A DNA stretch of 64,000 bases from a phage. This document shows, one piece after another, positions 19,781 through 51,360 of this stretch (its first letter is position 1; each line of letters begins with the position of its first letter). The notes under the pieces were generated by a model, which saw nothing but the letters and a program-made list of their open reading frames with translations, did not search any database and was not told where the DNA came from. Both the position numbers and the translations under genes were made by a program. The stretch lies in NCBI GenBank assembly GCA_025829515.1, contig GCA_025829515.1_4865.1, one strand, 5' to 3'.

Positions 19781-20056
19781 ATGCGTTATCAGAAAGATAT
19801 TGTAGAGCGTCTGTGTCTGGGTCTCGCTGGTATTAGCCAGGAACTTAGCACCGCGTTCCATAACGAGTTCTCAGCACCGCGACATGCACTGTCTGAATTT
19901 AGTCATCAGGTAAATGCCCATTACGGCAACCTGATTAATGATAAACCGAAGGTTGATGCGGTCGGTGTGCCTGAACACAATGAAGATATCCCGTACTGGA
20001 TTGAAGACCTGGAACGTGTGGTTCTTCCAGTGCTCCGTGAGAGGATGAAAAAATGA
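19781..20056 (+). CDS. hypothetical protein
   Basis: GAGGATT ribosome-binding site. Confidence 0.5.
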   Translation: MRYQKDIVERLCLGLAGISQELSTAFHNEFSAPRHALSEFSHQVNAHYGNLINDKPKVDAVGVPEHNEDIPYWIEDLERVVLPVLRERMKK

Positions 20057-20721
20057 GATTAGACCCGGCACGGCGAAAAAAAGCAGAAGCTTATGCTTTA
20101 CAGTTACTGAACTTAGTTGACCCGACCGGGATTAACGCGGAAGCTGCCAAGCGCGCTTTCTCACGAATGTCTGACGAAGAGTTCAATCGTCTGCGCGAAG
20201 GGTTGCCTGTTTACAACCCAACTGGTGGCAAGGTCAAAATTGACCATATGCGCAATATTAAAATTTGCGAAGCGATGGGACTGAACTTGTGTCAGCGCCT
20301 GTGGCTCACGGAACCGAAAACCGGTATCCTACAGCGTACCCGTTACCCCCATTTAGTCTTCCGGCTACCTGCACGTCGCCAGACGCAGATGCAAGAGAAG
20401 AAAATGGCGGTGGCGAAGAACGATAAAGTCCGCGATAAACTCTCGGGTCAGGTAGTAGGGCCTTCCAAAGCTTCGGGTGTTTCGTTTCCAGAAGCGTACA
20501 TCATGTACTCGGATGGACACGACTCAACGCTCCAGGAGTTCCTGTGGGCGCGTGGTGGTAACGATACGTTACAACGTGCGTTCTATCAATCGCTACGGCA
20601 AACCGGTAAAGGTCGCATCAACCTGGAAGGGGCTGAGCGTACCAGTTCAAAAGCGCCGCGTACATGGTCTTCGTACTTTAAAGCAATGCACATCGGTAAC
20701 AACTTAGGACGCCCGGAATGA
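20053..20721 (+). CDS. hypothetical protein
   Basis: ATGA overlap with upstream gene. Confidence 0.55.
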   Translation: MRLDPARRKKAEAYALQLLNLVDPTGINAEAAKRAFSRMSDEEFNRLREGLPVYNPTGGKVKIDHMRNIKICEAMGLNLCQRLWLTEPKTGILQRTRYPHLVFRLPARRQTQMQEKKMAVAKNDKVRDKLSGQVVGPSKASGVSFPEAYIMYSDGHDSTLQEFLWARGGNDTLQRAFYQSLRQTGKGRINLEGAERTSSKAPRTWSSYFKAMHIGNNLGRPE

Positions 20722-35822: not shown

Positions 35823-38800
35823 TTAGCTTGCTTTCCGACTTACGTTTAACGACGGTGTCGGTTGGGTTATTTCCTGCCTACGTGCAGCTGAGCCAGGAGG
35901 AGGCACATTTGCCGCTTGCTGGATACTACCACCCCGTGTGTCGTTTGCCGCTCTTGGATTTGATTTCAAAATATCACGAATCTCTTTCAAGTAATCGCGA
36001 GACTGAATCAGTACCTTGAGCTGCTGAACATCTATCGGGTCACCATTCAGCGTTGGCGTCGATGCTGTAGCATCAGAAGTTGGAGCGGCAACTGGACGAG
36101 CTGCTGCGTTAACCTGCGCTTCCGCGCCTGCTTTCACTTTAGCAACATCCGTCGCAGACAATCCTTCTGCTGCAGCTTGCGACGCTACGGTTTCGGCCGT
36201 TGTTGAGGCATCGGATGTTCCGGTACCGCCTGTGGTTGGTGTAGGTGCTGCTGGTCCTACATTACCTGCGGCGGTAGCCATTGCATCTTGTGCCGCCATG
36301 GCCCCTTTCTGCGTCAATACGTCATCACGACGATTAGCATTATCTGCTGGCAGGTTATCTGCCGGTGACAGACTCGGGTCATTAGCGGCCGGTGCACCCA
36401 TTGCTGCTGCCGGGTTGGTTGGTGAATTAGGCGACAAGCCTGCAACCATATCCTTCGTCTTGCTCGGATCGGCAGCGACTTCGTTGGCGGAAATTGCACC
36501 CATGCGGCGGTTCAGTTCCTGAATAACCCCATCTACGCTACGTATACGACCGTTGCTGTAGAAGACGTTGGCATTCCCTCTCAGTATTGCGGATGTAATC
36601 CCAGGAGCACTCGATGCCGCCATATTCGGATTACGCTTCCATGCTTCCAGGAATTTCTTACCGCCGCCTGCACCCAGGAAGTGGTACAGATAAGCCACGG
36701 CTGGAGGTGGTGCTTTACCACCCAGGTCACGTTGTGCTTTTTGGATGTTGTCACGAATGAACTGTACACCCAAAATAGCATTCGCCCACGGGTCCATCTG
36801 GTTAACACGCGGAATACCGAACTTCCGCGAATACCCCTTCATCATCCCGTCCCACGTACCGTTAACAAACTGGAACAACCCAGACGCCGAAGCATACGGG
36901 TTTTTAGCGGTGTAGTTAAAACCAGACTCCGCTTTTGCCATTGCTAACGCCACAGCAGGTGGCACGCCCATCATGTTCGCTGCATCGGTAATCAATGCTT
37001 TGATATTCGGAACGTTCAACGCACCCTTTCTACCCAACATTTCTATCGGGTATTTTTCAGCCAGTGACTTATAATCACCGTCTTTCACATCACTCAGGTT
37101 AATCGAAGACGAACCAGTGGTCATTGCAGCGTAGTTCCGCACACCGCCAACCGCATCGACGACTTGACCCAAGTTACCCGGCACACCACCACTCGTACCC
37201 GATGGAATGTAGCCTGAGGCGCGAGCACCGTCAGATGACAAAGAATCTCCCGAACTGATGTTCGAGTCTTCTTCATCTTCACCGGTAACTTCCAGAGAAC
37301 TGCGGTTCTTGTTACGATCCTTCCAGCGTGCACGCTTGCCATTATTTTTAATGGCTTTAATCATGTTACGCACGGCAAGGTCAGCTTCTTTTGACAACAG
37401 CTTCAGCGTTTCCAGCTCGGCTTTGATAGACGATGGGTTCGTGTTAGCATCGCCCCCTAATGGGTTGATATTCACTTCCCACACCGACTGTCTTATACCG
37501 CCTTTCAAGCTATAAGCTGTTGACATCATCAAACTGATTTCGTACAGGTAACCGCCGGTCAGTTTCAAGTTCAGCGGATCGGCTGTTGGCAGGTAGCGTT
37601 TCACCCCAACCAAATACGTCATGAATACCGGTAAGAAGCGGTCAAAGAACCACCGTTTCAAACGATCTTCTTTCGGTGTGCCGATAGCGTCTGGAACCAT
37701 CGAAGCGATGGCTTTCTTCCAGTCACCTTTATAACTTGCGGTTTTCACGTCGATGTCTTTGATGACGTTCTTCTCGAATACCGTAATCAACGTGCGTGTG
37801 GCGTTGTCGATGGTGGTAAAACCATAAGTCTTCCAACGTACCGACTCCATCGCATTCATGTCTTTCTGGTCGAGCACCGCGTTCCAGTCTACCTGAATCT
37901 GAACCTGCTCTGTTCCGTCTTCCCAACCTTCTACCTTCGCCAGATTTTTATTACGTTCGTTATCCAACTGTCCAAGTTTGTTGATAGCTTCATCAACACC
38001 CGCGGACTTAATCCCCTCCACGGCCGGTGCCATTCCGTACTTACGTGCTTTCTTATCGTCCATTCTGAACTTGATTGCACGCTCGACTTCATTCTGCACT
38101 TCCATAACCTCTTCACCGCTCAAAAACTCCTTCGGTGTAAAGGTTACAACGTCCCAGGCTTTCGAGAAGAAGCCTTGGTTGACTTTGCGTGGGTCTGTTA
38201 ACGAAGAGAACGCTTTTGCATCCTTAGTCATCTTCATTTTGTTGAAGAGTGTCTGCATGTCCTCTTTCGATACTTTCTTAGCATCGCCGACGTCAGCCAA
38301 CTGGATACTATTCGGCATTGATTTCAGTGCCGTAATCCAGCGGAGATAAATCGGAATAAAGCGCTGAAGCATAAACGCTTGGAAGGCCAACATCTCGCCT
38401 TTTTCCTCAACGTTAATACCGAACCCTTCAGCTAACTTCTGAACGTCTTTTCCACCTAGCCCACGGAGACTGGCTTGGCCATCTTCCGCGTAAGACACAT
38501 ACTCACGCAATGCGTCTTCTAAGTAACGCGCCTTCGCCCCGTCATCCGACGACCACTTATCGTAATCACGGAAACCGTACTGAGCTAAACGCATCTTATC
38601 CAGGTACTGGGTATAGGTAGTCGTTGCGATCTTGTACGCGGCGTAACCTGCCGCGGCGATCGCACCACCGATAAGAATTGCCGGCCAGCCCACTGCTGTC
38701 ACGACGGCAGATGCCGCAGTTGCCACAGCGGACACCGCGGGTGCCGCCAAACGGGTTACTGCGAACTTACCAACATTCCACGCAGCCTTACCTAAAAGAC

Positions 38801-41800
38801 CTACGGGTTTTAACACACCCCATTTCGTGATAGAACCGAGTATATTACCCACAGTTCCCAAGATACTGACGATGGGACCGATGATAGGTAAGCCTTTCAC
38901 CACATCCCACAGACCGCCAGATTTCCCTTTGGAGCCCTGCGCTTTCTCTTTCTTCTCCTTACGTTTCTCACGCCAACGTTTGAAGAAGTTAAAGTAGTCG
39001 CGTTTTTCATCACCTTCAGGTGGCTTGTTACGTTTACCGAACTTCGCAAACATGGTACGGATGATGCCATCGTCACCGCCTGCGCGGGATACTGATTCGC
39101 GCATGGTGTTAAACCACGACATCTCTTGCAAGCCAATCATTCGGTCCAAGCGTTCAAACAATCTTGCACCTGCAGATTTGGCAGCGTTCTTCCCTTTGTT
39201 GATAACCCGACCTGCTGCATCGCGCGCGGTCTCAAGGTCGTCCTTCGCGTCACCGTAGACTTTACGGCCAGAAAGACCACCTTTCGCGTTCAGATGACTG
39301 CGATAGAATTCAGCGACATCATCATCGCGTCCTGCCAATCGACGTTCAACTTCGTAGCGTGTGGCAATGTCGTGTCGTGCTCCACGATATCCGTCGAGCA
39401 TATCCCCAGCCCGGCCTCGGAAACCACTGAACCAACCACGCAGGCGGTCGCGTCCACGACCAAAGAACGCTTTTGTTCTTGACCAACGTCCACCAAAACG
39501 TTCAGACAACGACGATTTCGCACGATCATACGCCCCGCGTACTGCACGACCGATCGTACTACCGCCACCCCCGACACCCTTCTCCATTTCCTCTGTCCAA
39601 CTTTCGTCTTCCGGATCTCCCGGTAAACGTTGATTCAACAGTTTATAGATACGGATAAGAATGTGGTTGGTTTTCTTGCCGGTTGATGAGAAGATACTGA
39701 AACCGCCACCCCCACCATCTTTACGACCTTTCCACCAACGCGTTAGTGGGTTGTCGGTAATCATGTCTTTCAGACGATCGACACCACGTTTCGCAAAACC
39801 GAGCACTTTACCCGGTAAGCTCGTTACGCGGTTGAACGCTTTCTGGAGACGTGTCTTTTCTTCGCCTTCCGGAATCTCGTTCAGCCAGTCCTTAATCTTA
39901 CCAACGATGCTGCCCGCTTTCGGTGACAGGAAATCCAGGAACCTTTTCGGTAGCTTAGCCACCTTATTAAAGCCTAAGCCGATCTTACTGGCCAGACCTT
40001 GGGTCAGCGCTTGGATTTTCCCACCTTTATAGTAGCGGAGTTTACCGGCAGCGGCTAAGTCAGCGGCCGCTAGTACCAGGTTACCTGCGGAGTCAACAAT
40101 ATCACTCCCCAGTTTGATATCGTCCAGCGTTTTCAACTGAACCATTTTACCATCAATGACCTGATAGTATTCCCCAGCTTCCAGACGTGCACCTTGTAGA
40201 ACAACGTTACCGTGGTCATCGTAAACATCGCGGATACCCAGTAGTCCTTTACCGAAGGAACTTACCGCTTCAAAACCACCACGGACACTACCACTGATAA
40301 GGCCACGCATCCGGGTTAAGAAACCAGGACCTTCGCCACCTCCCATGCCTGCGACTTTACCGCGTGCCCAACCACCGAACTGGTTCAGTTTATTCCAGGC
40401 ACCCTTAACACCACGTTTCGCAAAGCCGCCGATTCCTGCTGCGGTGTCGAACAACACACCGCCCCAACGACGAATAAGCCCATCCTCACCGATGATAATA
40501 CGACGGCGTCTACCGCCACCGCTACCACCGCCAGGGCGAGGCGGACCCATTTCTTCATCACCAGAACCAGCACCCCCTGCTAACGAAGCCAGGAGAACCC
40601 CTTCTTCGTCCATACTTCTGACGTGTTCCAGAATTTTCTGGAGGGTGTCACTGTTGTTGTTACCCCGAATCGCTTCGATGATACCGTCAAAGTTATTCCG
40701 TGGTGCTTCTTCGCCACGGTTACGTTGACTCAACAATTCAACAAAGTTAGTCGAAGTTTCACCGTAGAGAACTGCGGCTAGCTGCCGAGGCGACATTCCG
40801 CGGCCTTTACCACCGCCACGTAAAGCCGGCGGCAACGACGTGTCATCGGCACCACCACTTGCCCCTTGGTTCATTCGGCGCAGATAGTCGCCTAACGCCG
40901 AACCATTTTGCAGCTTACGTTGAATCTCCTGGTCACGAGTCAATGCACGCCCGCTGCGTGTCTTACCCATTGCCAAGTCATTAAACAAGGTATAGGGATC
41001 GGACAGGTCTTTATCCACGCCGAAGGTGTCACTCTTCGCGTCGTAGTTAAAGATACCCGCATCACGCAACGCTCGCTCGCCGTAAATATTCACCGCCTCG
41101 TCGATAATTGCCTGACGTTGGGTGATAGATGACTGCACTGTGGAGATTTTGCGAGCCAGTTCGTTACTTAATTCGTTGCTACCACCAGTAAGACTGTCTG
41201 AATGCCCCTGTAACGCTTCCTTAATGCGTTCTGCGGCGTTTCCTGGCATATACCGATGAAGATGCATCGGGTCTTTCAGAATCGCTTCTACGTCGAATGC
41301 GCGGCCCTGCGAGGCACGTGACTCGATATAGTCGGCAAGATGCTGTCGATCCTTCTGCGAGAGCGTTTTGCCACGGTCAACAAAATCCACAGTGCTGTTA
41401 ATGGAATTTTGGAGACGCAGGCGCTGCTCATCGTTTGCAACCGCTTTGCGTACACGGTTACCGACCACTTTGCGGTCCACGAAACCACGACTGGTGATGT
41501 CGTATTCCAGATCGGCATGTTCGCCATAGCCACGACGAACAGATTTGTTAATCTCTGCCAGCCAGGCAGGAATAACTTCAACCAGGCTAAGATACGCTTT
41601 ACGGTCAAACTTCGCCGAGCGACTTAACGTTTCGCCATTACGCTCATCAAGGAAGGCTTTCTCACGGTTTAACGGTTGGACAATACCGAGTTCATTCAGT
41701 ACCCGGAACAAATCCGCCAACGGTCCTTGCGTTTCGCCTGCGATAGCTGAGTTCGAGATAGAGGAAAGATTACCAAAGGTGAACGCGCCCTTCTGCAGGC

Positions 41801-42944
41801 GTTTCATGACCTCTGGATTTTTCTCCATCTCCTCACGAGTCCATTTCTGGAGTTTCTCGATTTGTGGGCCGAGTAGTTTCTTCGCAAGGAATCCGCTACC
41901 CCATGCAGTTGCTTTATCGCGAGCATTTGTTTTGCGACGTTCGGCAGTCAACGAAGAGCTGTCGCTCATGCCGAAACCGTCTTCAACACCCATGCCGAGA
42001 ACAGACTCTAACAAACCACGACCTTCGCCAAATATACCAGAAATTTTCTTCTTGGTATTTTCGCGAATCATGTCCATAAACCCGTCAGCATAACGCAATG
42101 GGTTCATCCATTCCGCAGCCTGGCGTTTAACGTTTGCCCAACGGACTTCTGAGAAATCTTCCTTCGCGTAGTCTGGCAGCGCCGTGTTCTTCACGATGGC
42201 TTCTAAAGCAGGCGTGTTACGATCGAACTCCGACTGCTTCATCTTCACGATGTCTTGAATGGCGAACAGGGTACGGTATTGCAATTCGAGTTTCTTACGC
42301 TCGATGTTTAAGAATACCCCACGGCTTAACCCGGTTAGCAGGTTAATGTCTTTCGCCATCCCAATCATGGTTTGGTGCATTGCATCCGCGCGCATCTCTT
42401 TGATGCTGTCGCGGAGCTTATCCTCTACCATGCGGTCCTGCAGCTGACGTTGTTCGTCGGCGTCCTTTGGCACGCCTGAGAAAACGTCGCCCAGTTCACG
42501 ATCCATCAACGCCTGATTAGGATCGTAATTTTGGTAATCCAACTGGTCAGATTTTGACCACTTGTCGAAGCGCTTAGTAACTGCATCCGGCAAGTATTTC
42601 TTCATCGTCGGACCGAGTTGGCGTGCTTGCATCTTCAGCGTGCGCTCGGTCTTCTCAAGCTCCCCTTTCGTATGGGCGTAAATGTCCTTTGCTGCAGCTG
42701 CCGCTGACTGATAGCCCTCGTATGCATCAGCTGCCGGCTTAGGCATCCCCTTGAGGATAACTTGGTCACGTTTCCCTTCTGGCCAGATAGTTGACAACGC
42801 CGACTTCCTGGCAACATTCAGGGTACTGAGTATCGGGCTTCGTTTTTTCTCGTCTTTGGGACGGGGTGGTTCACCGAAATCATCCCAGTCGTCGAGTCTA
42901 TCTAAATCGATATCATCGAAACCGTCTTTGCCTCTTTTTGCCAT
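35823..42944 (-). CDS. giant virion protein (2373 aa) with C-terminal lytic transglycosylase domain
   Basis: Uninterrupted 7.1 kb ORF; Gly-rich segments; AKAESGFNYTAKNPYASASGLFQFVNGTW (SLT catalytic region) about 380 aa from the C-terminus; Ala/Pro/Thr-rich tail. Confidence 0.85.
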   Translation of the reverse strand: MAKRGKDGFDDIDLDRLDDWDDFGEPPRPKDEKKRSPILSTLNVARKSALSTIWPEGKRDQVILKGMPKPAADAYEGYQSAAAAAKDIYAHTKGELEKTERTLKMQARQLGPTMKKYLPDAVTKRFDKWSKSDQLDYQNYDPNQALMDRELGDVFSGVPKDADEQRQLQDRMVEDKLRDSIKEMRADAMHQTMIGMAKDINLLTGLSRGVFLNIERKKLELQYRTLFAIQDIVKMKQSEFDRNTPALEAIVKNTALPDYAKEDFSEVRWANVKRQAAEWMNPLRYADGFMDMIRENTKKKISGIFGEGRGLLESVLGMGVEDGFGMSDSSSLTAERRKTNARDKATAWGSGFLAKKLLGPQIEKLQKWTREEMEKNPEVMKRLQKGAFTFGNLSSISNSAIAGETQGPLADLFRVLNELGIVQPLNREKAFLDERNGETLSRSAKFDRKAYLSLVEVIPAWLAEINKSVRRGYGEHADLEYDITSRGFVDRKVVGNRVRKAVANDEQRLRLQNSINSTVDFVDRGKTLSQKDRQHLADYIESRASQGRAFDVEAILKDPMHLHRYMPGNAAERIKEALQGHSDSLTGGSNELSNELARKISTVQSSITQRQAIIDEAVNIYGERALRDAGIFNYDAKSDTFGVDKDLSDPYTLFNDLAMGKTRSGRALTRDQEIQRKLQNGSALGDYLRRMNQGASGGADDTSLPPALRGGGKGRGMSPRQLAAVLYGETSTNFVELLSQRNRGEEAPRNNFDGIIEAIRGNNNSDTLQKILEHVRSMDEEGVLLASLAGGAGSGDEEMGPPRPGGGSGGGRRRRIIIGEDGLIRRWGGVLFDTAAGIGGFAKRGVKGAWNKLNQFGGWARGKVAGMGGGEGPGFLTRMRGLISGSVRGGFEAVSSFGKGLLGIRDVYDDHGNVVLQGARLEAGEYYQVIDGKMVQLKTLDDIKLGSDIVDSAGNLVLAAADLAAAGKLRYYKGGKIQALTQGLASKIGLGFNKVAKLPKRFLDFLSPKAGSIVGKIKDWLNEIPEGEEKTRLQKAFNRVTSLPGKVLGFAKRGVDRLKDMITDNPLTRWWKGRKDGGGGGFSIFSSTGKKTNHILIRIYKLLNQRLPGDPEDESWTEEMEKGVGGGGSTIGRAVRGAYDRAKSSLSERFGGRWSRTKAFFGRGRDRLRGWFSGFRGRAGDMLDGYRGARHDIATRYEVERRLAGRDDDVAEFYRSHLNAKGGLSGRKVYGDAKDDLETARDAAGRVINKGKNAAKSAGARLFERLDRMIGLQEMSWFNTMRESVSRAGGDDGIIRTMFAKFGKRNKPPEGDEKRDYFNFFKRWREKRKEKKEKAQGSKGKSGGLWDVVKGLPIIGPIVSILGTVGNILGSITKWGVLKPVGLLGKAAWNVGKFAVTRLAAPAVSAVATAASAVVTAVGWPAILIGGAIAAAGYAAYKIATTTYTQYLDKMRLAQYGFRDYDKWSSDDGAKARYLEDALREYVSYAEDGQASLRGLGGKDVQKLAEGFGINVEEKGEMLAFQAFMLQRFIPIYLRWITALKSMPNSIQLADVGDAKKVSKEDMQTLFNKMKMTKDAKAFSSLTDPRKVNQGFFSKAWDVVTFTPKEFLSGEEVMEVQNEVERAIKFRMDDKKARKYGMAPAVEGIKSAGVDEAINKLGQLDNERNKNLAKVEGWEDGTEQVQIQVDWNAVLDQKDMNAMESVRWKTYGFTTIDNATRTLITVFEKNVIKDIDVKTASYKGDWKKAIASMVPDAIGTPKEDRLKRWFFDRFLPVFMTYLVGVKRYLPTADPLNLKLTGGYLYEISLMMSTAYSLKGGIRQSVWEVNINPLGGDANTNPSSIKAELETLKLLSKEADLAVRNMIKAIKNNGKRARWKDRNKNRSSLEVTGEDEEDSNISSGDSLSSDGARASGYIPSGTSGGVPGNLGQVVDAVGGVRNYAAMTTGSSSINLSDVKDGDYKSLAEKYPIEMLGRKGALNVPNIKALITDAANMMGVPPAVALAMAKAESGFNYTAKNPYASASGLFQFVNGTWDGMMKGYSRKFGIPRVNQMDPWANAILGVQFIRDNIQKAQRDLGGKAPPPAVAYLYHFLGAGGGKKFLEAWKRNPNMAASSAPGITSAILRGNANVFYSNGRIRSVDGVIQELNRRMGAISANEVAADPSKTKDMVAGLSPNSPTNPAAAMGAPAANDPSLSPADNLPADNANRRDDVLTQKGAMAAQDAMATAAGNVGPAAPTPTTGGTGTSDASTTAETVASQAAAEGLSATDVAKVKAGAEAQVNAAARPVAAPTSDATASTPTLNGDPIDVQQLKVLIQSRDYLKEIRDILKSNPRAANDTRGGSIQQAANVPPPGSAARRQEITQPTPSLNVSRKAS

Positions 42945-42974: not shown

Positions 42975-44588
42975 GTGAGAAAGCTTAACTGGGTAGATTT
43001 TTATCTACTGAACGTTAATAAGTCCCTGGTGTCGCATTTAAAACCAGTTACAACAACAGACACCTTTCAGGGACTGACGAAAAACTTTCACCCTGAAGGA
43101 CTGTATTCAACCGAAATTTTTGGCCTCACAGGGAGCGAAGCACGAGACTCAACGTTCTCGTACATTGATATCAAACTGGATATCATTTCGCCGACCGTTT
43201 GTTTGGCATTGTTCCAGCTGAAACAGCTGTACGAAGAAATCTGTTCCGGGAAGCGATTCGCTATCTGGAATGAGAAAGAAAAAGATTTCGAGCCGGCTCT
43301 GCCCAGTGATAAAGGTGCAGACACCGGCTTCAACTTCTTCCTACGCTACTACGAACAACTGACACCGGGACGCAACGAATCGATGCGTCGCGACGAGACA
43401 GTCGATTTCTTCAATAAGTTCCGTCCGGTCAGTCTCAGCCGCTATGTGCTGGTTCTGCCTGCGGGATTACGTGATTTGGTCATTCGTCAGGATGGCCGCG
43501 ACCAAGAAGAAGAGATTGGCGGACTCTACCGCCGTCTGATTTCTCTGGCACGTGCAATCCCCGACCGCAGTACGCGAACGGAACTGACTGACCCGGTTCG
43601 CTGGAAGCTCCAACAAACCTTTAATGATATCTGGATGTACTTCTTCAACATCCAAGACGGTAAAGGTGGTTTTGCACGTCGTAAAGTGACGTCACGTAAG
43701 TTAATGAACGGTACGCGTAACGTACTGTCTTCATTCTCAACCGGTTCCAAGGTCATGGGTCGCGAAGATGCGATTCGTCCAACGGATACCCGTATCGGTT
43801 TGTACCAAACCCTGAAGGCATTACTGCCTGTGGCTCAATACCACATCCGCGAACGTTACCTCAGTAACATCCGGGCAGGGGACGGCAACTTATACGGCGT
43901 TAACACCAAAACACTCAAGCGTGAGTTCCTGGAAGTCTCCGGGCGGGTGTATGACCTTTTCACTACCGACGATGGCATCGAAACACTCATCAACAGAATG
44001 GAAGCGCGCGAGCTTCGACATAAACCGCTGATGATTGATCCGGACCATTACGTGGCATTAATCTACCAGGACAAACGCAGCTTCAAAATCTTCTACGATA
44101 TTGAAGACCTGCCGGAAGGACGTGACCGTAAGCTTGTCCGCGGACTGAGCTTAGCGGAACTCCTCTATTTGTCAGGTTACGATATTTGGAATGACTACTT
44201 CTCGTTCATCACGCGTTATCCGGTTACGGGACGCGGTTCGACTTACTCCTCGACCATAAGATTGGAGACCACCACCTCTTCCCTCTATTTGCATGAACTG
44301 GAAGACGATTGGGTCACGTTAAAAGAGAAGGGAGCAATTAGCTTCCCTGACCGTACCGTGAAAACCTTTGTGGAATCCATGGCACCACATCCATCCCGAT
44401 TAGGTGGGTTGGGTGGTGACTACGATGGCGACACCGGCTCAGCAAACAGCCCGATGTCAACCGAAGCGCTCGAGGAAAATCGGAAGTGGGTCAGTTCGAA
44501 AAACTACTGGTTTGCAACAGACGGCAGTTTCAAAATCAATCCGGTTAACAACGTGATTAAAAGAACGACTGCTGCGCTGTTGAAATGA
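42975..44588 (+). CDS. RNA polymerase beta-prime-like subunit, N-terminal portion
   Basis: VLPAGLRDLVIRQDGR...LYRRLI and FARRKVTSRKLMNGTRNVLSSFS resemble conserved beta-prime regions; DYDGD (44418-44432) sits where the catalytic NADFDGD motif would be. Confidence 0.7.
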   Translation: MRKLNWVDFYLLNVNKSLVSHLKPVTTTDTFQGLTKNFHPEGLYSTEIFGLTGSEARDSTFSYIDIKLDIISPTVCLALFQLKQLYEEICSGKRFAIWNEKEKDFEPALPSDKGADTGFNFFLRYYEQLTPGRNESMRRDETVDFFNKFRPVSLSRYVLVLPAGLRDLVIRQDGRDQEEEIGGLYRRLISLARAIPDRSTRTELTDPVRWKLQQTFNDIWMYFFNIQDGKGGFARRKVTSRKLMNGTRNVLSSFSTGSKVMGREDAIRPTDTRIGLYQTLKALLPVAQYHIRERYLSNIRAGDGNLYGVNTKTLKREFLEVSGRVYDLFTTDDGIETLINRMEARELRHKPLMIDPDHYVALIYQDKRSFKIFYDIEDLPEGRDRKLVRGLSLAELLYLSGYDIWNDYFSFITRYPVTGRGSTYSSTIRLETTTSSLYLHELEDDWVTLKEKGAISFPDRTVKTFVESMAPHPSRLGGLGGDYDGDTGSANSPMSTEALEENRKWVSSKNYWFATDGSFKINPVNNVIKRTTAALLK

Positions 44589-44606
44589 TACCCATAAGGC
44601 ACATGT

Positions 44607-47600
44607 ATGATTTTTCTGAAACAGTTTAACCAGCGCTTTACCGTGCGCAAGACCGATGAGTTCGGTCGTCCGCGTATTATCCCGCTGGAGAAGCTCCAGC
44701 TCCCACGTGGTTCTATCTACCACACCATCGATTTAGACCAGGTGGTTTTAGCGCCACCGTTAACTACACCGTGTTTTGGCCAGCTGGAAAAACCGGCGAT
44801 GATTCGCCACCACTTCCAGCTGCCTGAAGACGGCATTATTGGCCATCCGCGTAAGAAACCGGTTGTTGGTCAAGAGCGCCAAATCTTCCAGTACCATCGT
44901 AACAACCGTCGTATTCGTCGCATGATTGAAGACGGCGTGGTACGTTCCGATCCGAAAGTGCTGCTCATCGAAAACTACACCCCGATGCTGCCGCATTATT
45001 TCTACCCTGATACTCTGATGTCCTGGTACGAACGTCTGCACAACATTCAGCTGCTGATAACTAACCAGATGAAAACTGACTCACGTGAGTACATGCGTCA
45101 GAACTACTACATCATCGAACTGGGTAACGTACTGCCTTCTTTCGATCGTTTTAAAATGACGTATAACGATCGTGTTAAAACCAAACTGGAGCGCTTTAAA
45201 GACTTTAACCTGCTGTGGTTACTGGAGTTGTTCGGTTGGGTGTACGGAGATCAGCAAGCAACACTGTTTGACGGTATGGACATGAACCAGCTGTCACGTG
45301 TGAACTTTATCTTCACACACAACGGTGGTTTTACATCCATGAACATGGGTGTAATTGAAAGAATGCGTAAGTCTGCCGGTGGTCGTTTGACTGACGTGCA
45401 GATGGGCAGAATGTTCTACCGTACACTGACTACGGTGATGACCACACCGCCGTCTACCGACTACGAAGATGACGAGTTCGTTACACCGGAAGGGGATGAA
45501 CGCGTACATCTGGGAGAGGACGACGATGCTGTTGAAACCGTTGCCAGTAAACCGGAAGAAAGCCTCGATATCGTCGACGATGAAGCAACACAAAGCGACA
45601 ACGTTGACGATACACTGAACGATCATGAGTTCGATGAGAAAGAAGATCTGGTCATCGAAGCGCCGAAAGAAGATGTCAAACCAACCACCATCGTCGTAGA
45701 ACGCACCATCCCACACGATGCTGTGATTAAACAGGAAGTTGAGCGCCTGGCAGAAGCGGGCCGCGTCACCGCCAAAGCGTATCAGTTCCTGAACGAATCT
45801 TCTAAACGTTTCGTAAACTTACCCAACCCGTACAATCCTAAAGAGACGTACGGCGAAGGTCTGACCATCGATCCGAAGAAACTCGAAGTTAAAGCCGAGC
45901 CTAAGAAGATTGAACGCTTAGTTACGGATGAAGCCTGGGCGGAAAATACCACCGACCAAATCATTCGTCAGTACAACCAGGAAATCTTCCCGAAAGATAT
46001 TCTGGGGGCAGTAGCGTCATCCCAACGTCTTGGTTTAGCGATTCACAATCACACTGTTGAGAAAGAGATTTCCGTTACCGGGAATATCGAACACCACACG
46101 TTGCGTATTCAGCCGATTGGCGGAGAACCAACCACGGTACGTTTCTCAATTCCTGCATTAACCGAAGACGGTACTTGGGTTGCAAATGGTGTGGAATATA
46201 CAATGCGTCGTCAGCGTGTTGATCTTCCTATCCGTAAAGTGTCCCACGATACTGTAGCGTTAACCACTGCCTACGGGAAGAACTTTGTCCGTCGCAGTGA
46301 TAAAGTCGTCAATGATTACGGACGTTGGCTCACTAACGCGATTATTACTCGCGCGGTCGATCCAAAGAACACCGAAATCACTGATGCAAAACTGGCGAAT
46401 GTGTTCGATCCGCTGTCTAAACTGCCGCGCCAATATACCGAAGTGGCGCGTCGTGTAGCAGCGTTCAACGCAATTGGGTACCAATGGAGCTTTGACATTA
46501 AACAGAAAGCGGCATTCTTTAACGAAGGGCAACTGGCAGACGCGGACCGTGTCGAGCTGGTACCTGTGGCGAAGAAACCGCGGAGCCATGTCATCGTCGG
46601 TATGGATAAAAACTCCCAGCTTTATCGAGTGGATAAGGATAAGACCGAACCACTGGGTACACTCGCCGAGGTCTTTGGCGTGGACACCTCTAAGGCTCCA
46701 CGTGAAATGACCGAACTGTCACTGATGGGCAAATCAATCTCGCTGGGCTTTGTGTTTGCGTACTATCTCGGATTAACCGGGATGTTGAAACACTTTGGTA
46801 TCAGTTACGAGGTTCTCTCTGTCGGACAACGTATCGATAAAGGTCAGTTCGACTCCATTATTCGTCTCCAGGATGCGAAAATTGCAATTGTCTGCGAGAA
46901 CGATCAACAGAGGATGATTGTCAACGGCTTAGACCGTTACATTAAACACTTTACCACGTATACCGAGTCGGAAGTTGACCGGGAAGACATTTATCTGAAC
47001 CTGTTACGCGATGCAGATGGGCTAACACCACGCTACATCAAAGAGCTGAAACTGATGCGGACCGCATTTGTTGACGACATGCACGCGCGTATCCTCAGGA
47101 AAATGGGCGAGCCGGAAACCTTTATCGGCTTACTGGAGCGTTCTAACGAACTGCTGCAGACGGACCACACGTTACCGGAAATTAACGGTGACGAAATGAT
47201 GTTCATCGGGAACCAACGTATTTCGTATCACATCTACACCGCGATGGTGCGGGCGATGCGTAACTACAACAACGCGCCTAACTCGAATCGTAAGTTTGAG
47301 TTGACGCAGGACATGGTGTGGGGTGCAATTAACTCCGACCCGTCTGTTCTGCTGGCACCTGGCGCAAACCCGGTACAGAACATCAAAGAAAAGGATGTCG
47401 TTACCATGGGCGGTACAGGCGGTCGTAACCGCAAAACCATGGTATACAGTACCCGTGAATTCCAACCGAGCGACCTGGGGATTGTCTCCGGTAACACGGT
47501 CGATAACGGCGACGTAGGTATCACCGCCTTTGCAACAAACAATCCGCGTTACGACACCGTGGACGGCACGACCTTTAAAAAGGACCTCGATAAACTGAAG

Positions 47601-48809
47601 CCAGGTGAGGCACTGTCATTTATTGATGGCTTAGTGCCGGATACCCTGATGGACGATGCTAAGCGTCAGAACTTCGTTGGGATTCAATTCGGTTCTGCGA
47701 CCAGTTGTGTTGGCGCAACCACCACACCGTATCGTACCGAGCAAGAAAAGTTCGTGGCACACCGTACTTCTGTGAAGCACGCACGCGTAATCGATAAACC
47801 TGGCAAGATTGTGGAGGTTCTTAACGACCACGTTAAAATCAAATACGACGGAGAGGAAGAAGCTTTCCCACTGGGCCGTTGGTTCGGTCCGCACGAAGGG
47901 ACTTACTACCCACACACCCTGGTAACGAAATGGAAGCGCGGAGATAAACTCCCTGCCGGTGCCGTTATCACGTACAACGAACAACACTTTGAACCAGACA
48001 TCTACGATCCAACGCAGGTCAGCTTTAAAAACGGGATACTGGCAACTGTCGCTTTGATTGAAGGGGAAGAAGTAATTGAGGACTCCAACGCCATTAGTGA
48101 GCGGTTCGCTGCTAAGGCTGAAGCCGATGTTACCAAACTCAAAGAAGTCACAATGACGTTTACCCAGAACCTGTTGGAGATGGTAAAAGAAGGGGACCAC
48201 GTAGACGTGGATTCAATTCTATGCACCTTCACCGACAACCTGACCGGCGATATGAGCGGGTTCAGTAAAGAAGCAGCGGAAACGCTGCGTGAGTTAAGCT
48301 CCTTTGCACCACGCTCTGGTGTTCGTGGGTTTATCGACAAAATCGAAGTGGTTTACCACGGCGAGGTGGAAGATATGACCCCGTCTTTGGCGGAGATGGT
48401 TCGTAAATACGACCGTATACGTCGGAAGACTGCGCTGGCTCTCAAACGTGACGAGCCGAAGGACGGTCGAGTCAACGGTGATTTTCGTGTTGAGGGGGTG
48501 CCGTTAGCGTACAATAGCCTGTGTGTCCGATTCTACATCACACACCGGGTAGAGATGGCAGCAGCGGATAAGATGGTTATTGCTAACCAGCTGAAAACGA
48601 CGGTTCAGGAAGTGATGTATGGAACCAACAAAACGGAAGACGGGCAGGAACTCGACATTATCTTTGGTCGTGATTCCGTCGACGCACGTATCGTAGGTTC
48701 TATCATGCGCATCGGAACCACCAACGCTGTCGGGTATCGTGGTGGGGAGAATATCGGACGCATCTTAGATGGTGAAGACGTCCCAGCCTTGCCGGCTAAA
48801 ATCAACTAA
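44607..48809 (+). CDS. RNA polymerase beta-like subunit (large, with long N-terminal extension)
   Basis: MGGTGGRNRKT...REFQPSDLGIVSGNTVDNGDVGI (about 47405-47520) resembles the beta LGPGGL...[24 protein letters not shown] region; adjacent to the beta-prime-like gene. Confidence 0.55.
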   Translation: MIFLKQFNQRFTVRKTDEFGRPRIIPLEKLQLPRGSIYHTIDLDQVVLAPPLTTPCFGQLEKPAMIRHHFQLPEDGIIGHPRKKPVVGQERQIFQYHRNNRRIRRMIEDGVVRSDPKVLLIENYTPMLPHYFYPDTLMSWYERLHNIQLLITNQMKTDSREYMRQNYYIIELGNVLPSFDRFKMTYNDRVKTKLERFKDFNLLWLLELFGWVYGDQQATLFDGMDMNQLSRVNFIFTHNGGFTSMNMGVIERMRKSAGGRLTDVQMGRMFYRTLTTVMTTPPSTDYEDDEFVTPEGDERVHLGEDDDAVETVASKPEESLDIVDDEATQSDNVDDTLNDHEFDEKEDLVIEAPKEDVKPTTIVVERTIPHDAVIKQEVERLAEAGRVTAKAYQFLNESSKRFVNLPNPYNPKETYGEGLTIDPKKLEVKAEPKKIERLVTDEAWAENTTDQIIRQYNQEIFPKDILGAVASSQRLGLAIHNHTVEKEISVTGNIEHHTLRIQPIGGEPTTVRFSIPALTEDGTWVANGVEYTMRRQRVDLPIRKVSHDTVALTTAYGKNFVRRSDKVVNDYGRWLTNAIITRAVDPKNTEITDAKLANVFDPLSKLPRQYTEVARRVAAFNAIGYQWSFDIKQKAAFFNEGQLADADRVELVPVAKKPRSHVIVGMDKNSQLYRVDKDKTEPLGTLAEVFGVDTSKAPREMTELSLMGKSISLGFVFAYYLGLTGMLKHFGISYEVLSVGQRIDKGQFDSIIRLQDAKIAIVCENDQQRMIVNGLDRYIKHFTTYTESEVDREDIYLNLLRDADGLTPRYIKELKLMRTAFVDDMHARILRKMGEPETFIGLLERSNELLQTDHTLPEINGDEMMFIGNQRISYHIYTAMVRAMRNYNNAPNSNRKFELTQDMVWGAINSDPSVLLAPGANPVQNIKEKDVVTMGGTGGRNRKTMVYSTREFQPSDLGIVSGNTVDNGDVGITAFATNNPRYDTVDGTTFKKDLDKLKPGEALSFIDGLVPDTLMDDAKRQNFVGIQFGSATSCVGATTTPYRTEQEKFVAHRTSVKHARVIDKPGKIVEVLNDHVKIKYDGEEEAFPLGRWFGPHEGTYYPHTLVTKWKRGDKLPAGAVITYNEQHFEPDIYDPTQVSFKNGILATVALIEGEEVIEDSNAISERFAAKAEADVTKLKEVTMTFTQNLLEMVKEGDHVDVDSILCTFTDNLTGDMSGFSKEAAETLRELSSFAPRSGVRGFIDKIEVVYHGEVEDMTPSLAEMVRKYDRIRRKTALALKRDEPKDGRVNGDFRVEGVPLAYNSLCVRFYITHRVEMAAADKMVIANQLKTTVQEVMYGTNKTEDGQELDIIFGRDSVDARIVGSIMRIGTTNAVGYRGGENIGRILDGEDVPALPAKIN

Positions 48810-50631: not shown

Positions 50632-51360
50632 GTGGTCGTGAGCGCCATTGAAACAGCACGTCGTGACGCGACGAAAATTCATGCAGATTTAGTGGACCAA
50701 GGCACGGCCACCATCACCAAAGGGGGATGTTATATTTACATCCCTGTTGGCTTCGTGGCTAAAGAGCTGGCGGTAATTTCTTCGCAAGTCGAAATCGTCG
50801 GCATTTTCGCTATCTCCACTGACCGCAAAACCTACGGGGTATCGAACGTCACGACGTTCATTGAAATTACCCCGTCGGCGTTTGAGGAAATTGATGTTCA
50901 GGGCGTGCCGTATTACGAGTTCCGTTTTGACCCCGGCACGGTGGTGTTCCCCAACCGAATGCTGCAAGTGCTCTCCTCGCCAGTCTACAACATCGCTTCG
51001 TACATCTACGACTTCGGAAACCGGCCTTTCTGGTACACCGCAGTAGATGACGCTGAGCTATTGTCTGACACTAAGACGTGGAACGGCTTTACGGTCTTTA
51101 ACGACCAGATCACCGCTGACTGTTATGCTGCCCACACACAGCGTAAGGTTGGCGACCCGCGGACGTATTTCCGCTACACCCTGAAAAAAGACAGCGATTT
51201 GATGAATCGGGTGCGGTTTATTCCGCTGCGTTCAGGTTCATTGAACAAAACTTCCCGGTTGGCCAAGATTGCAGATGTGGAACTGAAACAGGGTATCCGT
51301 TCTGCACTCCAGGTCGATCCGGTACGTGCAGAGCCACTCGAGGATTTGTATATGAGGTAA
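50632..51360 (+). CDS. hypothetical protein
   Basis: GTG start after AGAGAGGTGG. Confidence 0.55.
   Translation: MVVSAIETARRDATKIHADLVDQGTATITKGGCYIYIPVGFVAKELAVISSQVEIVGIFAISTDRKTYGVSNVTTFIEITPSAFEEIDVQGVPYYEFRFDPGTVVFPNRMLQVLSSPVYNIASYIYDFGNRPFWYTAVDDAELLSDTKTWNGFTVFNDQITADCYAAHTQRKVGDPRTYFRYTLKKDSDLMNRVRFIPLRSGSLNKTSRLAKIADVELKQGIRSALQVDPVRAEPLEDLYMR

Follow-up and report, generated by a model that had tools for sequence, protein, structure and literature searches.

Which enzyme, if any, is encoded by the two adjacent open reading frames that occupy positions 42975 to 48809 of a 64,000-nucleotide stretch of phage DNA (GenBank assembly GCA_025829515.1, contig GCA_025829515.1_4865.1; this whole stretch is called the window below)? 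A first-pass annotation, made from the letters alone, had read them as the adjacent, split and highly divergent beta' and beta genes of a phiKZ-like jumbo phage. Family profiles, orthology and a structural model of the larger protein agree with this reading, and we conclude with high confidence that beta'N and betaN, two subunits of the multisubunit RNA polymerase that an SPN3US-like (Seoulvirus) Salmonella jumbo phage packages in its virion (vRNAP), are the products of these genes. By sequence, and for the larger protein also by structure, both proteins are parts of a two-barrel RNA polymerase with conserved catalytic residues. The coordinates and lengths of the two open reading frames are exactly those given earlier, and 18 nucleotides (nt) separate them; the first starts with GTG, 8 nt downstream of an AGGAG Shine-Dalgarno sequence.

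42975..44588, + strand: gene for vRNAP subunit beta'N, 537 amino acids (aa), orthologue of SPN3US gp240 and phiKZ gp180 (open reading frame, Shine-Dalgarno sequence, phrog_2986, family profile)
44607..48809, + strand: gene for vRNAP subunit betaN, 1400 aa, orthologue of SPN3US gp241 and phiKZ gp178 (open reading frame, phrog_3148 over its full length)

SPN3US-like Salmonella jumbo phages, genus Seoulvirus, share 98-99% identity with the window. For the 5.8-kb gene pair the nucleotide identity is 99.3% with SPLA5c, 99.1% with the SPFM phages and 97.9% with SPN3US, in which the genes are SPN3US_0240 and SPN3US_0241. At the protein level beta'N is 99.6% identical to SPN3US gp240 and 33.6% identical to phiKZ gp180, and betaN aligns end to end with phiKZ gp178 at 30% identity, N-terminal module included. 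In PHROGs, beta'N matches phrog_2986 end to end (E 3e-238) and betaN matches phrog_3148 over its full length (E 0), both families being annotated 'RNA polymerase beta subunit'. The comparison with phiKZ gp178/gp180 and with the SPN3US vRNAP, which the first-pass annotation had proposed, thus yields orthology in both cases, with synteny kept.

The smaller protein contains all the motifs originally quoted for it: VLPAGLRDLVIRQDGR at residues 160-175, LYRRLI at 184-189, DGKGGFARRKVTSRKLMNGTRNVLSS at 228-253 and DYDGD at 482-486 (nt 44418-44432).

43452..43733, + strand: beta' conserved blocks VLPAGLRDL...LYRRLI (residues 160-189) and GKGGFARRK...NGTRNV (residues 228-253), aligned to RpoC 240-356
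44418..44432, + strand: predicted catalytic Mg-binding loop DYDGD (residues 482-486), aligned to RpoC NADFDGD

A profile built from 31 sequences of the gp240 family and searched against the PDB matched the AR9 phage RNA polymerase beta' chain (7s00/7s01, E 5e-12), with the D-F/Y-DGD columns aligned, as well as plastid, cyanobacterial and bacterial beta' chains (E 1e-10 to 1e-6); all matches were beta' or gamma chains. When E. coli RpoB and RpoC were offered to the family hidden Markov model (HMM), RpoC only was found, at 214-356 and 447-507, and it is RpoC 240-356 (VLPPDLRPL...) that aligns with the two conserved blocks at residues 160-189 and 228-253. Profile-profile (HH) comparison gave P 5e-7 and 8.6e-5 against 51 proteobacterial RpoC sequences, and 0.23 against an RpoB alignment from 51 genomes. 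The Pfam family RNA_pol_Rpb1_1 is reached by four of the 31 family members (best E 1e-5). The proposal that DYDGD stands where beta' has NADFDGD is borne out by the alignments of the PDB profile search, of the HMM (independent E value 3e-6 for the 447-507 segment) and of HH (P 8.6e-5), and the family consensus at this place is GADFDGD, with D482 invariant and D484, G485 and D486 at least 90% conserved. These alignments predict that DYDGD sits on the catalytic loop of beta'. The Cys4 zinc element of bacterial beta' was not encountered in beta'N, which has two Cys in all (76 and 90); this element is a trait of the bacterial lineage and no requirement for the catalytic family.

The larger protein also carries the motifs quoted for it, MGGTGGRN at residues 934-941 and REFQPSDLGIVSGNTVDNGDVGI at 950-972, and GEME is lacking from it, as had been noted, the protein ending at about RpoB 1146. 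The homology with beta extends much farther towards the N terminus than had been thought.

45777..48806, + strand: beta-homologous body (residues 391-1400, equivalent to E. coli RpoB 4-1146; HH P 8.6e-11, model of residues 355-1400)
46149..46217, + strand: conserved beta N-terminal motif IPALTEDGTWVANGVEYTMRRQR (residues 515-537), aligned to Thermus beta 117-139 and E. coli RpoB 126-148
47406..47522, + strand: fork-loop-2 or 'LGPGGL...ETPEG'-like region (residues 934-972), collinear with Thermus beta 396-463 and RpoB 519-556
47652..47657, + strand: conserved Asp-Asp, D1016-D1017 (E. coli RpoB 'HDDANR', D675), within the most significant aligned block
48561..48614, + strand: beta double-psi beta-barrel active-site block AADKMVIANQLKTTVQEV (residues 1319-1336), aligned to RpoB 1039-1107, GDKMAGRHGNKGVISK

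The gp241-family profile (28 sequences) matched Thermus beta in the PDB (E 2e-11) in four collinear blocks that follow the canonical order: the IPLMTEDG..NG motif, the GPGG fork loop with ETPEG, the HDDANR block and the GDK..NKG barrel block. Its HMM found RpoB only, at 126-148, 650-740 and 1039-1107, and HH gave P 8.6e-11 against RpoB, with a relaxed extension that places residues 391-1400 on RpoB 4-1146. An AlphaFold2 model of residues 355-1400 (predicted local distance difference test score, pLDDT, 84.1; predicted template modelling score, pTM, 0.81) was compared with the PDB by Foldseek and matched bacterial beta with E 5e-26, probability 1.0 and a template modelling score of about 0.5 over about 1100 columns at 12-14% identity; 440 PDB entries were matched at E 1e-3 or better, and the top 50 were all RNA polymerase beta chains. 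The model thus indicates that the betaN body carries the overall beta fold, over nearly the full length of bacterial beta. This corrects the earlier estimate of an N-terminal extension of roughly 900 aa devoid of motifs, as, from profile, HMM, HH and model, beta homology starts at about residue 391, leaving an extension of about 390 residues; residues 391 to 934 make up the N-terminal half of beta, with IPALTEDGTWVANGVEYTMRRQR at 515-537. The first-pass annotation had made its reading depend on profile or structural similarity to beta' and beta: both profiles are significant, and the betaN model superimposes on beta.

Several residues of betaN are invariant in the gp241 family, namely G936, G939 and R940 in the fork-loop region and D1321, K1322, Q1328 and K1330 in the barrel block. 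The conserved Asp-Asp site is the insertion and cleavage site of a PhiPA3 homing-endonuclease intron that attacks phiKZ gp178, and homing introns insert there in phiKZ relatives too; in the window the D1016-D1017 codons are uninterrupted and there is no intron. In an alignment of low confidence, RpoB H526, R529 and S531 face E, V and T within residues 921-938 (47367-47420), and such residues at rifampicin-contact positions would agree with the insensitivity to rifampicin known from phiKZ-type infection.

The first ~280 residues of betaN are not homologous to beta, and are joined to the body by an acidic linker.

44607..45446, + strand: N-terminal vRNAP-specific module (residues 1 to about 280), not homologous to beta
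45444..45674, + strand: acidic, poorly conserved linker (residues 280-356; 40% Asp+Glu; composition, consensus mostly 'x')

The model of this module is of high quality (pLDDT 93.3, pTM 0.91), and no solved structure is related to it. The module belongs to no other PHROG, and against predicted viral structures it matched only the N-termini of vRNAP beta homologues and two proteins of ~460 aa. It was found at 246 places in 242 phage records, that is, essentially once per genome, and in every listed record it lies inside a gene annotated as RNA polymerase beta subunit or inside an unannotated counterpart. One record, pPa_SNUABM_DT01, seemed to hold the module as a separate gene; this candidate was rejected, the two features being the overlapping beta'N and betaN genes. 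In phage 201phi2-1 the orthologue is cut by the prohead protease at TFE-275, while SPN3US gp241 is unprocessed (PMC5694885), and this cut site falls almost exactly at the module boundary (~280). A role in head targeting was proposed for the N-terminal module by Thomas et al. (PMC5105663). In our view the module would most likely serve as a handle by which the assembled enzyme is taken into the prohead, or as an aid to ejection. That it is a structurally new vRNAP-specific domain, which could be a dedicated packaging or ejection handle or else a stand-in for the missing alpha/sigma function in assembly or promoter recognition, is a tentative proposal, and a rather doubtful one. If true, it would be a new kind of capsid-targeting domain, carrying a pre-assembled polymerase of ~350 kDa into the prohead.

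What, then, supplies the C-terminal part of beta? The first-pass annotation expected further subunit genes outside the window. This holds for beta'M, the gp42 homologue, which is outside the window as judged by the SPN3US gene order; the betaC gene and the beta'C candidate are both inside it.

20053..20721, + strand: vRNAP betaC gene, 222 aa, orthologue of SPN3US gp218, GEME-equivalent region (phrog_3233, HH)
50632..51360, + strand: published vRNAP beta'C candidate, 242 aa, orthologue of SPN3US gp244 and phiKZ gp176 (phrog_2926)

The gene for the 'missing' C-terminal part of beta (20053-20721) lies 22 kb upstream of the gene pair. The gp218 homologue belongs to phrog_3233, 'RNA polymerase beta subunit' (E 9e-94), and HH gave P 1.2e-4 against RpoB and 0.23 against RpoC (beta'), residues 1-222 aligning on RpoB 1126-1341 with FPEAY opposite FGEMEV and TLQEFL opposite TLQEML. 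Searches of PDB and Pfam with the single sequence or with a narrow profile gave no link to beta, and it was HH against the 51-genome RpoB alignment that provided support. The 1400-aa protein is therefore a beta N-terminal fragment and not a complete beta, the C-terminal region being supplied in trans by the 222-aa protein, and according to the alignments betaN (391-1400) and betaC together tile one whole beta, E. coli RpoB 4-1341. The gp244 homologue is in phrog_2926, 'virion structural protein' (E 4e-94). The five-polypeptide set thus comprises betaN, beta'N and betaC, which are supported in the window, the gp244 homologue, which is present in it, and the gp42 homologue, which by SPN3US order is outside.

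The function of the orthologues has been studied by experiment. Virion proteomics, named in the first-pass annotation as a way of checking its reading, is published for SPN3US: gp42, gp218, gp240, gp241 and gp244 are head proteins, found in purified heads, and gp241 is an essential virion protein required for incorporation of gp42, gp218, gp240 and gp244 into the head (PMC5105663; PMC5694885). Amber mutants in 241, 218 or 244 produce non-infectious particles that lack all five subunits; those of the 218 and 244 mutants have a normal appearance and are filled with DNA, yet are non-viable, and gp244, itself essential and located in the head, depends on the other four subunits as they do on it (PMC5105663; PMC5694885). 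Because all five are lost together in each amber mutant, the enzyme is thought to assemble before its incorporation into the prohead (PMC5105663; PMC5694885). These two papers label gp241 as beta'N in one table and as betaN elsewhere. In phiKZ, gp180 co-precipitates gp178, gp80 and gp149; each virion carries about 10 copies of it, which reach the cell together with the DNA and remain outside the phage nucleus (PMC10612078). Packaging in the head and delivery into the host cell were shown for Goslar as well. According to a 2026 review, which reports no vRNAP structure, the vRNAP core consists of five polypeptides resembling beta or beta', with alpha, sigma and omega all missing (PMC13282480).

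Taken together, these data suggest how the enzyme would work. The clamp/dock part of beta' and the catalytic, Mg-binding D-x-D-G-D loop would come from beta'N. betaN provides the counterpart of RpoB 4-1146: protrusion, lobe, fork loops and a beta double-psi beta-barrel in which the Lys residues are conserved. With betaC, the beta'C candidate and beta'M they would form a two-barrel core without alpha, omega or sigma homologues. From the work on SPN3US and phiKZ, the five polypeptides probably assemble in the infected cell, with the first ~280 betaN residues as a separate folded module on its acidic linker, and the prohead would take in vRNAP only as a complete set, in roughly ten copies per virion in phiKZ; the enzyme would then be ejected with the DNA and transcribe the early genes independently of the host RNA polymerase. 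Packaging, co-dependent incorporation, injection and essentiality hold in the orthologues, and the same properties are to be expected in the phage studied here.

Some observations weigh against this interpretation. Taken alone, neither beta'N nor betaN matched a Pfam RNA polymerase family, and in single-sequence searches of the PDB the best match of beta'N was a plastid beta' chain with E 0.69, while betaN gave irrelevant matches only; such empty single-protein searches mean that detection needs family profiles. The resemblance of the fork-loop region to LGPGGL...CPIETPEG, proposed in the first-pass annotation, is right in its place, beta fork loop 2, but the MGGTGG...DNGDVGI stretch by itself is not significant (HH P 0.2; 0.5 bits in the profile search), and its assignment is supported only because it is collinear between significant segments and lies in a flexible, low-pLDDT loop of the model, as expected of beta fork loop 2. 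For the gp244 homologue no beta' signal was obtained by phmmer against the PDB, by a 120-sequence profile from 460 homologues against the PDB, by HMM against RpoC or by HH against RpoC; its beta'C label, which rests on SPN3US genetics and proteomics and on a weak published HHpred match (PMC5105663), still lacks sequence support. Head targeting by the N-terminal module is a hypothesis taken from the literature; 201phi2-1 loses the module by cleavage, but SPN3US keeps it. No promoter-specificity factor was identified. Finally, the function given here is carried over from orthologues of at least 98% identity.

Could the two proteins derive from an RNA polymerase and yet have lost catalysis, serving as head or ejection proteins whose part in capsid assembly is purely structural? 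The extreme divergence (12-14% identity to cellular beta, no Pfam match) and the loss of the beta' zinc-finger Cys, with two Cys left in the 537-aa protein, would be compatible with this, and disruption of phiKZ gp178 perturbs capsid assembly. However, the Asp triad, the beta Asp-Asp and the barrel Lys are invariant or nearly so in a family that diverges to 30-40% identity, which argues for selection on catalysis, and neither infection by phiKZ-type phages nor their early transcription needs the host RNA polymerase (PMC5105663; PMC13282480). Moreover, SPN3US particles without vRNAP are DNA-filled and normal-looking but non-infectious (PMC5694885). We regard a purely structural role as very unlikely.

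A confusion with the non-virion RNA polymerase (nvRNAP), which acts in middle and late transcription in the phage nucleus and is not packaged, also has to be considered, as both enzymes are built of split beta/beta' homologues and as the beta'N profile finds its best PDB match in the beta' of the AR9 nvRNAP, although only because no vRNAP structure exists. The orthologues of the two proteins, SPN3US gp240/gp241 and phiKZ gp180/gp178, were nevertheless detected in virions and heads, the genes lie in a neighbourhood of head genes by the prohead protease, and the betaN N-terminal module occurs once per genome and always in the vRNAP gene. In addition, mCherry-gp180 is kept out of the phage nucleus while the nvRNAP subunit gp55 is imported into it (PMC10612078). 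That the genes encode nvRNAP subunits is, in our opinion, extremely improbable. As for a chance occurrence of motifs in unrelated large phage proteins, which the E of 0.69 to a beta' chain and the lack of any single-sequence match for the large protein might suggest, it is refuted by the PDB profile searches and by the HH and Foldseek results, all highly significant, subunit-specific and with clean negative controls. We thus retain the identification of the genes as the beta'N and betaN genes of the packaged vRNAP.

The surroundings of the genes are as in SPN3US and phiKZ, with a divergent gene for a tail-associated transglycosylase upstream, and homologues of gp242-244 and the prohead protease downstream.

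35823-42944, - strand: tail-associated protein, 2373 aa, with a C-terminal lytic transglycosylase domain, phiKZ gp181 type

The start codons of this gene (35823-42944, -) and of the beta'N gene are divergent and only 30 nt apart, so that the two promoters must either reach into coding sequence or be located farther away. A scan for sigma70 promoters and intrinsic terminators around both vRNAP genes gave none above the shuffled expectation, as expected of such a phage. Several SPFM records (LR535904, LR535907, LR535912 and related ones) gave fragmented, multi-piece matches of ~70% identity and garbled protein models for the vRNAP genes, while sister SPFM records are 99% identical over them; the odd records look like error-rich assemblies rather than biology.

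The system is already published and experimentally studied, and for the genes themselves our conclusion is an annotation as orthologues of SPN3US gp240/gp241. The vRNAP lets phiKZ-like jumbo phages transcribe their early genes without the host polymerase, inside a protective vesicle, so that it has a central part in how they withstand host defences and rifampicin. What is added here is a residue-level map of betaN 391-1400 and the 222-aa betaC over E. coli RpoB 4-1341, the observation that the published beta'C assignment of gp244 is still without sequence support, and a confident model of the betaN N-terminal module, which has no known structural relative. As no vRNAP structure is reported in the literature searched, this module and the beta'C question are the remaining points.

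Compared with known systems, the closest are SPN3US gp240 and gp241, which are essentially the same genes with identical gene order and neighbours, and differ only by strain-level substitutions; SPN3US gp240 was listed as 519 aa by Thomas et al. (PMC5105663), whereas the open reading frame with a good Shine-Dalgarno sequence gives 537 aa here. The phiKZ orthologues gp180 and gp178 also lie beside a gp181-type tail lysin and upstream of a gp175-type prohead protease, but phiKZ carries an additional gene, gp179, between its two RNA polymerase genes, in place of the 18 nt found here, and its gp180 loop is DFDGD instead of DYDGD. The nvRNAPs of phiKZ and AR9, which have been solved (e.g. AR9 7s00/7s01), are of the same split two-barrel type without alpha and omega, and AR9 beta' also has DYDGD. 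With bacterial RpoB and RpoC the phage proteins share the fold over nearly the whole of beta, the blocks in the same order, and the catalytic Asp loop, the beta Asp-Asp and the barrel Lys; they differ in that identity is down to 12-20%, each subunit is split into two to three polypeptides encoded at separate loci, beta carries a non-beta N-terminal extension of 390 aa, and beta' has no Cys4 zinc motif and the enzyme no alpha, omega or sigma partners.

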